A DNA stretch of 64,000 nt from a virus: IMG/VR virus record IMGVR_UViG_3300024262_000020, positions 23,616 to 87,615 of that record, one strand, 5' to 3'. Made by a program: the position numbers and the translations under genes. This document shows, piece by piece, positions 17,111 through 29,914 of the stretch (position 1 is its first letter; each line of letters begins with the position of its first letter). Under the pieces are notes generated by a model. The model saw nothing but the letters and a program-made list of their open reading frames with translations. It ran no database searches and was not told where the DNA came from.

Positions 17111-17113
17111 ATG

Positions 17114-17185
17114 TGACGAGTACGGGATTCGAACCCGTATCTTCGGTTTTAGAGACCGACATTCTGACCATTGAACTAACAAGCC
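17114..17185 (-). tRNA. Amber suppressor tRNA, anticodon CUA (Trp-like body)
   Basis: Anticodon arm TCGGT-CTCTAAA-ACCGA; T arm ACGGG-TTCGAAT-CCCGT; acceptor GGCTTGT/ACTCGTC with two mismatches; A73. Confidence 0.8.
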
Positions 17186-28020: not shown

Positions 28021-28108
28021 CGGAAAGTGGAGGACTCGATCCCCACCCGATTTAACGAGACCTTGTTTTCAAGACAAGTCGCACCTCCATGGCACTGCTT
28101 CACTTTCC
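28021..28108 (-). tRNA. Atypical tRNA-Ser(UGA)
   Basis: GGAAAGT/ACTTTCC-G; CTTGT-CTTGAAA-ACAAG; T loop ATCGAGT. Confidence 0.75.
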
Positions 28109-28148
28109 AATTATTTCAAGATGTCAAAGAACAAAAGTTCACTAAAGT

Positions 28149-28180
28149 AAAAAAACCTGAACTTTTAAGTTCAGGTTTTT
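28149..28180 (-). terminator. Attenuator terminator upstream of the tRNA cluster
   Basis: AAAAACCTGAACTT-AA-AAGTTCAGG-TTTTTTT. Confidence 0.85.
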
Positions 28181-28204
28181 CCTTTTATCTTATATGAAAA
28201 ATTT

Positions 28205-28303
28205 TTATTTCATATGATTTGAATAAGGCATAATAAACCTGAACTTGGTTTTGTGTGAACTAAACCAGAACGAAAATTTACTATGTTTACTTATTGCCAT
28301 CAT
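28205..28303 (-). CDS. Leader peptide MMAISKHSKFSFWFSSHKTKFRFIMPYSNHMK (tRNA-cluster attenuator)
   Basis: Codons 5-18 all Ser/Lys/His/Phe/Trp; contains a 12-nt antiterminator segment at 28235-28246. Confidence 0.8.
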   Translation of the reverse strand: MMAISKHSKFSFWFSSHKTKFRFIMPYSNHMK

Positions 28304-28364
28304 TTTAGATTTCTCCTATTTTTTTGTTTATATATTTTAATTTTAAAGTCTCTTTTTTCTATTT

Positions 28365-28508
28365 TTACAATTCTCTTACTTCTTCAATTGTTTCTTCGAT
28401 TTCTGTTATTTCATAACCTCTTTCTTCTTCCCAGTTTAAAAAGTTGTAATAATTACCTGTATGGTCTAAATAATCCAACAATTCGTTTAACAATTCTTCT
28501 CTATCCAT
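28365..28508 (-). CDS. Small acidic protein (47 aa, not in track)
   Basis: MDREELLNELLDYLDHTGNYYNFLNWEEERGYEITEIEETIEEVREL after a TATATTTG promoter. Confidence 0.55.
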   Translation of the reverse strand: MDREELLNELLDYLDHTGNYYNFLNWEEERGYEITEIEETIEEVREL

Positions 28509-28580
28509 TTTTATTAATTTATTTTTTAATTAGACTGCAAATATACGACTATTTATGATAAAAAAAAGTTTTTGTTTAAT

Positions 28581-29072
28581 TTATTTGAAAATTTTATACA
28601 TTTTATTTTCAAATCCTATTGTTGCGTTGTATAATTCTTTGTTATTCATATAATCATTTTCATCATATCTACCAATAATTTCTATTGATGAACCTTTACC
28701 TGCGTTTGGACCGTCACAAAATAGTAGAAATTCATATCCCATATATTCAAATTTCCAAATTTTATAAAAAAATTCACCTCTGAAAGTGCCATTTTGTTGT
28801 CCAAATTGTTTTTTTGCTTTATTATAATCAATTCCGTGTATAACATGATTATATTCCATTTGATCTTGGAATTGTTTTTTTGTTCTTGGTCGTCTTTGTG
28901 CATATTTAGAATTCCATACAATATTCCAAATATTCATAGTGTTAATATTTTCCACGTTAATTTTACCAGGTATATGTGTGAGAACACCATCACCATCTGC
29001 TCCACCTTCAGTTGTGGTTTTATTTATTAAATTCTTTCCAATTTGTTTAATGTGATCTCTAAATGATTTCAT
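28581..29072 (-). CDS. Hypothetical protein
   Basis: 163 aa ORF. Confidence 0.65.
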   Translation of the reverse strand: MKSFRDHIKQIGKNLINKTTTEGGADGDGVLTHIPGKINVENINTMNIWNIVWNSKYAQRRPRTKKQFQDQMEYNHVIHGIDYNKAKKQFGQQNGTFRGEFFYKIWKFEYMGYEFLLFCDGPNAGKGSSIEIIGRYDENDYMNNKELYNATIGFENKMYKIFK

Positions 29073-29073
29073 A

Positions 29074-29397
29074 TTATTCTTTAATTTTAAAATTAAATGT
29101 TGTGTAGTTAGAATCTTTTGGTGTTGATATTACTTCATATCCATTATATTCAGCGGCTTTCAAAAATTTTATAATAAATTCTTGTTTTAGTTGTTCGTTT
29201 GGTAATGTAAATGGTGGTGACAATTTGCCTGGTTTTAAACCATAACTATTTATTAATTTAAAAGCCTTTTCAATAACTCCATCGTATTCTTCGGGAGTAT
29301 ATTTTCTTTCCCAACCTCTTAACATATTGACTAACTTTATAAAGTTATAAGAATTTTTAATAAAATTTTCATTGAACATTTTCCAGTTGTGTAACAT
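29074..29397 (-). CDS. Hypothetical protein
   Basis: 107 aa; N-terminal MLHNWKMFNE. Confidence 0.65.
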   Translation of the reverse strand: MLHNWKMFNENFIKNSYNFIKLVNMLRGWERKYTPEEYDGVIEKAFKLINSYGLKPGKLSPPFTLPNEQLKQEFIIKFLKAAEYNGYEVISTPKDSNYTTFNFKIKE

Positions 29398-29413
29398 AAT
29401 TATTATTTTTATT

Positions 29414-29914
29414 TTATATATTATTAATTGTTTCTAATTTCTTTTTTCTTATTAATTTAATATTTGTTTCTTCAGTGATTTTTTCACCATTTTGTTTTTT
29501 AAATTCTACCTTAATTTTATAAGGTTTATTATTTATTAGAAATAATGACACATAGAATCCACCTGTGGAACTTGTGGAAGGATTATATGTGAAAGTGGAT
29601 TTTTCACATATACCACCTATTAAACTAAGTACACAAGATTTTAAATTTTTGATAGTTGGTGTTGTTTTTCTATCTTGCCAAGTCCAATTAACTGATTTCA
29701 TATGATTCTCAACTGTTTCAAAATCAAATCTTTCTATAATATCCTCAAGTAAATCCCTTATATTGACTTTATCTATAAGTTTCCAATATTCTATTTCATA
29801 TAATGGTTCTAAATATGTTTCCCAGTAATTGTGCCAATTTTCATTTCTATCTTTATCAGTATATTTTTCTTGATAATCTTTAAAAGAAATTACATTTTTA
29901 TCGTCAATTTTCAT
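29414..29914 (-). CDS. Hypothetical protein, paralog of 6434..6787, RKKKLETI tag
   Basis: IIERFDFETV...NWTW...STGGF. Confidence 0.7.
   Translation of the reverse strand: MKIDDKNVISFKDYQEKYTDKDRNENWHNYWETYLEPLYEIEYWKLIDKVNIRDLLEDIIERFDFETVENHMKSVNWTWQDRKTTPTIKNLKSCVLSLIGGICEKSTFTYNPSTSSTGGFYVSLFLINNKPYKIKVEFKKQNGEKITEETNIKLIRKKKLETINNI

Follow-up and report, generated by a model that had tools for sequence, protein, structure and literature searches.

Why does a short open reading frame (ORF) made up largely of serine, lysine, histidine, phenylalanine and tryptophan codons, followed by a terminator-like hairpin, stand ahead of a phage tRNA array that carries these same five isotypes? We addressed this question in a window of 64 kb, the whole stretch of DNA analyzed here, which was taken out of an 87.6-kb IMG/VR virus record with a CheckV completeness of 12%. 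As set out below, sequence comparison and predicted RNA folding argue that a ribosome-mediated (leader-peptide) transcription attenuator very probably gates the Ser/Lys/His/Phe/Trp tRNA array, and that synthesis of these tRNAs is probably restricted to times of slow decoding at the matched codons.

The window has a G+C content of ~27% and encodes a T4-type large terminase, a baseplate wedge protein, collagen-like tail fibres and a family B DNA polymerase. This gene content identifies a tailed phage as the source, and the window represents part of a huge-phage genome. A giant virus of eukaryotes, which we considered because of the low G+C content, the tRNAs and the hairpins, was ruled out by the T4-type terminase, baseplate and tail-fibre genes. 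The nearest named relatives by terminase (41–53% identity) are the uncultured genomes LR756501.1, LR756502.1, LR756504.1 and LR745206.1, of 735, 642, 636 and 634 kb, respectively, the four largest complete genomes in a survey of huge phages (PMC7162821). Closer terminase relatives, at 53–92% identity, exist in IMG/VR. At the level of DNA, a similarity search of a phage collection returned endonuclease genes and a few tRNAs only, and searches of viral contigs found no relative of a 163-aa protein encoded upstream and no match to the exact 26-nt terminator sequence.

An earlier note on this DNA had described a downstream array of 14 tRNAs with five isotypes (Ser ×4, Lys ×4, His ×2, Phe ×2 and Trp ×2). 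This array, which lies after the terminator on the minus strand, is confirmed by ARAGORN at a relaxed threshold (14 of 14 genes, compared with 9 of 14 at the default) and by Rfam matches at all 14 places. Two homing-endonuclease genes on the same strand, with DNA similarity to known endonuclease genes, are embedded in it. From the leader onward, the array reads as follows:

28020–28108, minus strand: tRNA-Ser(UGA)
27931–28014, minus strand: tRNA-His(GUG), 84 nt, long variable arm
27226–27876, minus strand: GIY-YIG homing-endonuclease gene, similar to seg-type endonuclease genes
27149–27224, minus strand: tRNA-Phe(GAA)
27057–27144, minus strand: tRNA-Trp(CCA), 88 nt, long variable arm
26951–27022, minus strand: tRNA-His(GUG)
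26793–26875, minus strand: tRNA-Lys(CUU), 83 nt
26703–26778, minus strand: tRNA-Lys(UUU)
26556–26640, minus strand: tRNA-Lys(UUU), 85 nt, long variable arm
26361–26437, minus strand: tRNA-Phe(GAA)
26209–26282, minus strand: tRNA-Lys(UUU)
26124–26197, minus strand: tRNA-Trp(CCA)
25346–26110, minus strand: HNH-type endonuclease gene, similar to HNH endonuclease genes
25281–25367, minus strand: tRNA-Ser(GCU)
25126–25212, minus strand: tRNA-Ser(GGA)
25030–25121, minus strand: tRNA-Ser(UGA), the last gene of the array

Unusual long variable arms are common among the tRNAs of this phage clade.

The ORF and the sequence elements that precede it are arranged as follows:

28328–28366, minus strand: promoter-like motif, an A-rich box ending in GAGAC and then AATATATAA 13 nt on (conserved in relatives)
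28313–28317, minus strand: AGGAG, Shine-Dalgarno-like, 9 nt 5′ of the ATG (read from the sequence)
28205–28303, minus strand: leader ORF, 32 codons plus TAA (translation; homologues in eight other phage genomes)
28250–28291, minus strand: regulatory run, codons 5–18, all Ser/Lys/His/Phe/Trp (translation and six-frame run count)

The first tRNA starts 96 nt downstream of the ORF. Retranslation of 28303–28205 on the minus strand reproduces the coordinates and the peptide that had been reported, MMAISKHSKFSFWFSSHKTKFRFIMPYSNHMK, together with the 14-codon run and the count of 20 Ser/Lys/His/Phe/Trp residues among 32. The reported codon usage is likewise recovered, with both codons in use for Lys (AAA/AAG), His (CAT/CAC) and Phe (TTT/TTC), AGT, TCG and TCA in use for Ser, and TCC and TCT absent. 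All 14 codons of the regulatory run can be read by the anticodons of the downstream array. In a six-frame translation of the 64-kb window, the run of 14 is unique and the next longest run of these five residues has a length of 8; the counts fall geometrically, by ~3.5-fold per step, so that ~0.002 runs of 14 are expected in the window. Upstream of the ORF, the bipartite motif at 28366–28328 may act as a promoter. A bipartite motif with the AATATATAA end is found 5′ of most first-in-array leaders in the relatives, and internal leaders there sit directly 3′ of a tRNA. The AGGAG is not conserved in the relatives, which have A-rich ...GAAAT(C/A)ATG contexts instead.

Within and just beyond the ORF lie the RNA elements from which the proposed switch would be built:

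28274–28285, minus strand: core of region 1, CAUAGUAAAUUU, candidate anti-antiterminator (minimum-energy fold)
28235–28246, minus strand: region 2, antiterminator strand, codons 20–23 (exact copy of the terminator 3′ arm)
28192–28215, minus strand: small hairpin ATATGAAA/TTTCATAT over the stop codon (minimum-energy fold)
28149–28180, minus strand: intrinsic terminator, with its 5′ arm at 28178–28167, its 3′ arm at 28164–28153 and 7 T ending at 28149 (sequence and fold)

The terminator consists of a stem of 11–12 bp followed by the 7 T. Its hairpin at 28180–28149 is present in the minimum-energy fold, as is the hairpin that the earlier note had placed over the stop codon, at 28215–28192. The latter may serve as a pause or spacer, and by eye we see small hairpins of other sequence at or after the leader stop in three relatives. 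That codons 20–23 duplicate the terminator 3′ arm, as had been claimed, holds to the letter: AAGTTCAGGTTT at 28246–28235 is an exact 12-nt copy. This sequence has three exact occurrences in the window, namely the copy in the ORF (28246–28235, minus strand), the 3′ arm itself (28164–28153, minus strand) and the reverse complement of the 5′ arm (28167–28178), and shuffles give an expectation of 0.73 matches at ≤1 mismatch in the window. Region 2 pairs with the terminator 5′ arm over 11–12 bp with a ΔG of −15.0 and a z of −4.5, the best of 39 arms. When the 17 terminator-like hairpins of the window are compared for the best upstream complement to their 5′ arms, this terminator leads by far at −15.0 kcal/mol, with the next at −8.6, and it alone has such a copy upstream. 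In the minimum-energy fold, region 1 pairs with 28240–28229, which comprises the 3′ half of region 2 and the next 6 nt.

We mapped tRNA genes in the records that carry related terminases and in the four huge genomes that are complete, and took the arrays with their flanks. By script, a unit was defined as a terminator-like hairpin on the tRNA strand, a short ORF ending 5–60 nt before it and the tRNAs that follow, and the set used for statistics contains 39 non-redundant leader-terminator-tRNA units from 13 genomes. An ORF of 15–42 codons with a terminator heads almost every block of sense tRNA genes in these relatives, and nearly all sense tRNA isotypes are placed behind such leaders; no leader was found ahead of suppressor tRNA(CUA) genes in any genome examined. 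The ATG, the open frame and the stop are kept in 39 of 39 units. TAnnTTTG promoter-like motifs lie 5′ of many units and suggest a Bacteroidota host. A T4-like phage tRNA cluster, run through the same script as a control, has no terminator ahead of the cluster.

The leaders of the relatives differ from one another in step with the tRNAs that they precede. The leader MTTSFQQQQQQQINRTD precedes four tRNA-Gln, MKTIAMIIRMRIIRPKMLG precedes Arg, Ile and Met tRNAs, MKAMILSLCLSLSLSLQKLG... precedes Leu, Ser and Cys tRNAs, and MKTKKQQYKQYQPQYK... precedes Tyr, Gln and Lys tRNAs. Arg and four Ser tRNAs follow MKTTIKNTSSRSRSSKSG..., five Leu tRNAs follow MNNILHINLLNSLCLLG..., and Pro, Thr, Gly, Arg, Val and Ala tRNAs follow ...AVVVRTGTPTRPVAGTV.... 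Homologues of the window leader itself are found ahead of His/Trp/Phe/Lys(/Ser) arrays in eight other phage genomes (for example, MALVKKHSSKSFKFWSHS..., MRNFSKHSKSFKFWSSK..., MNNTFKHNSSSFHKWFS... and MLQTSKHSKHFSSSSKWF...). Substitutions and indels among these homologues fall almost entirely inside the Ser/Lys/His/Phe/Trp set, the order and number of the residues varying.

Over the 39 units, the match between leader composition and the isotypes that follow lies at z = 12.2 relative to permuted pairings, a value reached by 0 of 100,000 permutations, and 143 of 156 array isotypes are present in their own leader. Within the four complete 634–735 kb genomes, a leader's own array is its best match in 24 of 25 cases, the single exception being the first of two tandem attenuators. 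As a decisive control for base composition, translating these sequences in the +1 or +2 frame removes the match (z = −0.6 and −1.8, respectively). Counted by codon, the anticodons of a unit can read 42% of its own leader, versus 18% after permutation. The earlier note had proposed to check whether leader codons ahead of tRNA arrays in related phages co-vary with the array anticodons. They do: where an array of a relative has another isotype set, the composition of its leader matches that set, in the ORF frame only, an outcome in favor of the note's reading.

Because the partition of isotypes differs among lineages and the leaders follow it, shared ancestry cannot explain the match. Ser is grouped with Lys, His, Phe and Trp in the window, with Arg in LR745206.1 and LR756502.1, and with Leu and Cys in LR756504.1, where Lys is grouped with Tyr and Gln. 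The more distant LR756500.1 (462 kb), left out of the 39-unit statistics, has three convincing units, in one of which a leader rich in His, Glu, Val, Trp and Leu precedes exactly those tRNAs. The Lak-C1 megaphage has one candidate leader before a loose array, with an ambiguous match between the two, which we excluded from the counts. From this pattern we consider it likely that a genome of the clade divides nearly all its sense tRNA genes among 3 to ~7 regulons, each gated by its own codon-matched leader, and that leaders are rewritten when isotypes move. Such a system would act as a codon-resolved homeostat of the tRNA pool, sensing failing decoding capacity per isotype group and replacing exactly what is missing.

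The pairing strands show a correspondence of their own. Measured against dinucleotide-shuffled leaders, the duplex of the terminator 5′ arm with its own leader has a mean z of −3.0, with 26 of 39 units below −2; the complementarity of region 2 is weak, with z above −2, in the other 13. Pairing is far stronger between a leader and the terminator arm of the same unit than between leaders and arms of different units (z = −12.8; 0 of 20,000 permutations). Among the nine leaders of the window's class (class A), the antiterminator, the 5′ arm and the 3′ arm co-vary, such that TTCAGG in the window has the counterparts TTCGG, TTTGG, TTCGGGG and ATCGGG elsewhere. Region 2 occupies codons 19–25 in these nine leaders, always just 3′ of the matched codons, and a duplex of ORF codons ~1–12 with region 2 and the sequence following it (the 1:2 duplex) is predicted in 9 of 9. 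RNAalifold on a MAFFT alignment of the nine leaders returned no consensus pairs, as the arms are shifted against one another by indels, and pairing was judged by per-sequence duplex statistics and not by alignment consensus. A co-occurring strain, seen in a DNA run, has 22 differences from the window in 28180–28243 and indels in both terminator arms, with zero differences in 28244–28291, where its contig ends (at 28291). Between the two strains, then, changes run together through the spacer and the three pairing strands and spare the matched codons.

We modeled stalling with a 30-nt ribosome footprint on nascent RNA that ended at the terminator loop. For the window, the duplex of region 2 with the 5′ arm (2:3) forms when the A site is at codons 1–15, is lost at codons 16–20 and re-forms, with at least six pairs to the 5′ arm, from codon 21; codons 16–18 of the run lie where a stalled ribosome would mask region 2. 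In nearly all units, the duplex is kept at the matched codons and abolished just downstream. The earlier note had proposed that stalling on these codons frees the antiterminator, and the footprint model agrees, in that the best nascent-RNA fold still contains the 2:3 duplex when the ribosome is stalled at matched codons. Beyond region 2, another 10 codons of the ORF follow, and a ribosome parked at the stop codon would leave region 2 unmasked.

Two features of these folds bear on how the choice would be made. The full-length minimum-energy fold retains the terminator at every modeled ribosome position, so antitermination must be kinetic and lies outside what thermodynamic folding can demonstrate; in classical attenuators too, the full-length RNA favors the terminator and the choice is a kinetic one. 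In nascent RNA up to the terminator loop, the 2:3 duplex forms in most units even with no ribosome present and prevails over the 1:2 helix, which makes termination a matter of ribosome timing or of the 1:2 helix, a helix of variable strength. We know of no characterization of transcription-translation coupling in the presumed Bacteroidota host. Weak points of the attenuator reading are the 10 codons beyond region 2, the masking of region 2 by stalls at the last three codons of the run, the failure of the 1:2 helix to prevail in the truncated fold and the modest complementarity of region 2 in a third of the units.

The locus accordingly combines a leader ORF, enrichment in cognate codons, an intrinsic terminator, antiterminator pairing and a stall geometry, the last by footprint-constrained folding only. 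The interpretation of leader and terminator as an attenuator, first put forward in the earlier note, gains support from the frame-specific match, the co-variation of the strands and the stall geometry of the footprint model. From these parts, their geometry, conservation and co-variation, and the codon-to-tRNA match across arrays, all of them read from the sequences, we infer leader translation, stalling, stall-driven read-through and a natural trigger, which could operate as follows. Transcription would start just 5′ of the leader, and a ribosome would translate the 32-codon ORF while RNA polymerase advances. When Ser, Lys, His, Phe and Trp codons are decoded fast, the ribosome would run across region 2 (28246–28235), with region 1 re-pairing with region 2 afterwards; the terminator hairpin (28178–28153) would then form and the polymerase halt at the T run, leaving a leader RNA of ~170–180 nt as counted from the putative promoter. 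When a cognate tRNA is scarce or uncharged, the ribosome would stall with its A site in codons 5–15, covering region 1 and leaving region 2 free to pair with the emerging terminator 5′ arm. The terminator would thereby be blocked, and the polymerase would enter the 14 tRNA genes. As the products of the array read the tested codons, the loop would be self-limiting, a homeostat of decoding capacity. Candidate causes of tRNA depletion are host shut-off, the codon demand of the phage and anticodon nucleases.

The last of these causes leads to the alternative that we take most seriously, in which the device is the same and its natural signal is specifically host tRNA-cleaving defence by PrrC-, PARIS- or retron-type nucleases, making it a counter-defence sensor and not a general supply-demand homeostat. 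Phage tRNAs replace host tRNAs depleted during infection and allow infection to proceed in the face of anticodon nucleases, for which tRNA-Lys is a frequent target (PMC10264068, PMC11464382, PMC11555353). With four genes, Lys is the isotype most often duplicated in the window array, and the unusual long variable arms of the clade's tRNAs might evade nucleases. The relatives, however, put nearly all sense isotypes behind leaders, including ones that are not known as nuclease targets, which points to general control of the tRNA pool, and we hold an exclusively defensive signal to be possible but rather unlikely. As triggers, a defence nuclease, starvation and plain demand cannot be told apart from sequence. 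Another proposal dispenses with translation altogether, the leader RNA binding tRNAs through displayed triplets in the manner of a T-box, or serving as a tRNA-like decoy, with the ORF incidental. ARAGORN at the relaxed threshold does call one relative's leader a weak tRNA-Lys, and by eye the spacing of two conserved nucleotide blocks is constant, at 47–48 nt, in three leaders. T-box riboswitches are likewise terminator/antiterminator switches that read tRNA status for translation-related genes, but they recognize uncharged tRNA by direct contact with one specifier codon and a conserved T-box sequence, no translation being involved. The leaders here each display many matched triplets instead of a single specifier; all 39 units keep the ATG, the open frame and the stop, and the composition matches in that frame only. 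Rfam models at E ≤1 gave no T-box match in 24000–29500 and no tRNA match over the leader at 28205–28303, the only leader-type match being a sub-threshold Thr_leader over the terminator (25 bits versus a cut-off of 55 bits). With no such motif and a signal that depends on the reading frame, the window element is, as far as its sequence tells, not a T-box riboswitch, and an RNA-only sensor appears very improbable.

The peptides themselves might act, in trans, as micropeptides, as reported for peTrpL, with the link to the array secondary. Trans-acting leader peptides are known (PMC7298713), and an N-terminal M-K/R-T/N-x-N/S-x-N-I-like motif recurs in leaders of different classes, a resemblance that could equally reflect common descent or initiation context. 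In their central parts the peptides have nothing in common from unit to unit and track the tRNA isotypes, not any fold, and we give this explanation very little credence. Least credible of all is that the ORF is a normal small gene of the phage, or arose by chance, and that the terminator after it belongs to the upstream transcription unit, the resemblance to the tRNAs being a coincidence or an effect of composition. Short Lys/Phe/Ser-rich ORFs are indeed abundant in AT-rich genomes, and the hairpin, being symmetric, could also end transcription on the opposite strand. Set against this, the run of 14 is far beyond its expected frequency and has no equal in the window, and the frame-specific match recurs in 39 units with different isotype sets, with three strands co-varying. 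In our view, the frame-specific match, the permutation statistics and the strand co-variation already refute a chance origin.

A ribosome-mediated attenuator, our preferred reading, has close counterparts in amino-acid operons. The thr (Thr and Ile), ilvGMEDA (Ile/Leu/Val), trpL, hisL, pheL and leuL attenuators likewise join a short translated ORF rich in cognate codons to an intrinsic terminator (PMC1183508), translation being predicted for the phage leader. In these operons too, the antiterminator is placed so that a stalled ribosome frees it, and the geometry here is that of the trp, his and ilv attenuators. The thr and ilvGMEDA leaders test several amino acids in one leader (PMC1183508), as the phage leader would. 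Unlike amino-acid-operon leaders, the phage leader would test five amino acids, and up to ~8 in relatives, and belongs to a phage-encoded family among whose members almost the entire tRNA set of a genome is divided. Whereas amino-acid operons regulate biosynthetic enzymes, the phage element would regulate tRNA genes, whose product acts directly on the sensor. Control of a component of the translation apparatus by a leader peptide has a precedent in the pheM leader of the Escherichia coli pheST operon, by which phenylalanyl-tRNA synthetase is attenuated according to the supply of charged tRNA. That leader differs from the phage leader in testing a single amino acid and in regulating a synthetase instead of tRNAs, and the gene is a cellular one.

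Among published accessory tRNA arrays that can be induced, the trn tRNA operon of Anabaena PCC 7120 comes nearest; it is under the repressor TrcR and, as proposed here, stays silent until translation is impaired (PMC8421152, PMC10272220). Its control is exerted at the promoter, where direct repeats over the −10 box and the start site are bound by the ribbon-helix-helix repressor. Unlike the phage units, it is cellular or plasmid-borne, its whole array forms one regulon and it has no codon matching; the paper on the operon mentions no attenuator, leader peptide or terminator, and the ORF and terminator architecture is not described there. Counter-defence studies of phage tRNAs deal with the function of the tRNAs and not with the regulation of their synthesis. 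We found no description of attenuators ahead of tRNA genes in the full-text literature, most subscription journals lying outside the search, and the words attenuat-, leader and terminator are absent from the huge-phage survey (PMC7162821). The proposed mechanism is of the known trp/his/ilv type, and what is new, within the searchable literature, is its tRNA-gene target and the codon-matched partition of isotypes.

If the model is true, its significance lies in a new regulatory logic for tRNA genes, in which a translation-coupled attenuator yields a tRNA product that relieves the inducing stall. So far as known, tRNA genes are regulated at the promoter, by growth rate, by stringent control or, in Anabaena, by a repressor. 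The arrays would also provide a natural case of demand-driven, isotype-specific tRNA supply. This would bear on the ~50-year question of why phages carry tRNAs and would make it possible to predict, in testable form, which codons become limiting for infection and at what time. The leaders could serve as ready-made in vivo reporters of decoding speed for defined codon sets, and their rewriting as arrays reshuffle would show with unusual clarity how a sensor and its regulon co-evolve. For huge-phage genomes, the order of short ORF, terminator and tRNA block offers an annotation rule. As to transcripts, two metatranscriptome runs contain only short contigs of the window region or of a relative, among them one RNA contig of 266 nt that overlaps the 5′ part of a relative's leader.

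Immediately ahead of the leader, on the minus strand, we observe an ordered set of short motifs, and an additional open reading frame lies beyond it.

28328-28366, minus strand: conserved motif ahead of the leader
28508-28365, minus strand: 47-aa ORF

In the motif, an A-rich box and GAGAC are separated from AATATATAA by 13 nt, and the same arrangement precedes leaders across many genomes. It may serve as a phage-specific promoter. A Bacteroidota-type TAtaTTTG is found farther upstream than this motif, at ~28543, where it precedes the 47-aa ORF.

The tRNA array that follows the attenuator also contains two homing-endonuclease genes on the tRNA strand, four tRNAs of unusual length and two spacers of tRNA-like size.

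27226-27876, minus strand: GIY-YIG homing-endonuclease gene
25346-26110, minus strand: HNH homing-endonuclease gene
26556-26640, 26793-26875, 27057-27144 and 27931-28014, minus strand: long-variable-arm tRNAs (Lys, Trp, His)
26438-26555 and 25213-25280, minus strand: spacers of tRNA-like size

The GIY-YIG and HNH genes would be expressed only upon read-through of the attenuator. The four Lys, Trp and His tRNAs are 83-88 nt long, each with a long variable stem-loop resembling that of class II tRNAs, and each is adjoined by an isoacceptor of normal length. Long-variable-arm tRNAs are also present at five loci in the genomes of relatives (L055, L060, L066, L068 and L069), and among relatives the same form extends to Gly, Val, Thr, Pro, Asn and Phe tRNAs. 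One of the two spacers carries a T-arm-like GGTTCAATTCC, and the other gives a sub-threshold Rfam match to an unrelated small RNA.

In two relatives' loci, the attenuator occurs in tandem.

L066 767-1081 and L095 1641-1956, oriented locus coordinates: tandem attenuators

Here, only one tRNA separates a first leader-terminator pair from a second pair of similar composition downstream. This layout suggests nested or stepwise control.

A suppressor tRNA gene and the terminase gene lie elsewhere in the window.

17113-17185, minus strand: suppressor tRNA(CUA), also at L060, L061 and L083
14150-16270, plus strand: terminase gene

A leader ORF was never found with the suppressor tRNA(CUA) genes, either in the window or at these three relatives' loci. 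Such genes are frequently paired, and they are present even though code 11 keeps the long genes of this genome open. In the terminase alignments, many relatives start only at residue 115 and others at residue 2; the gene may be split or insertion-bearing in part of the clade.
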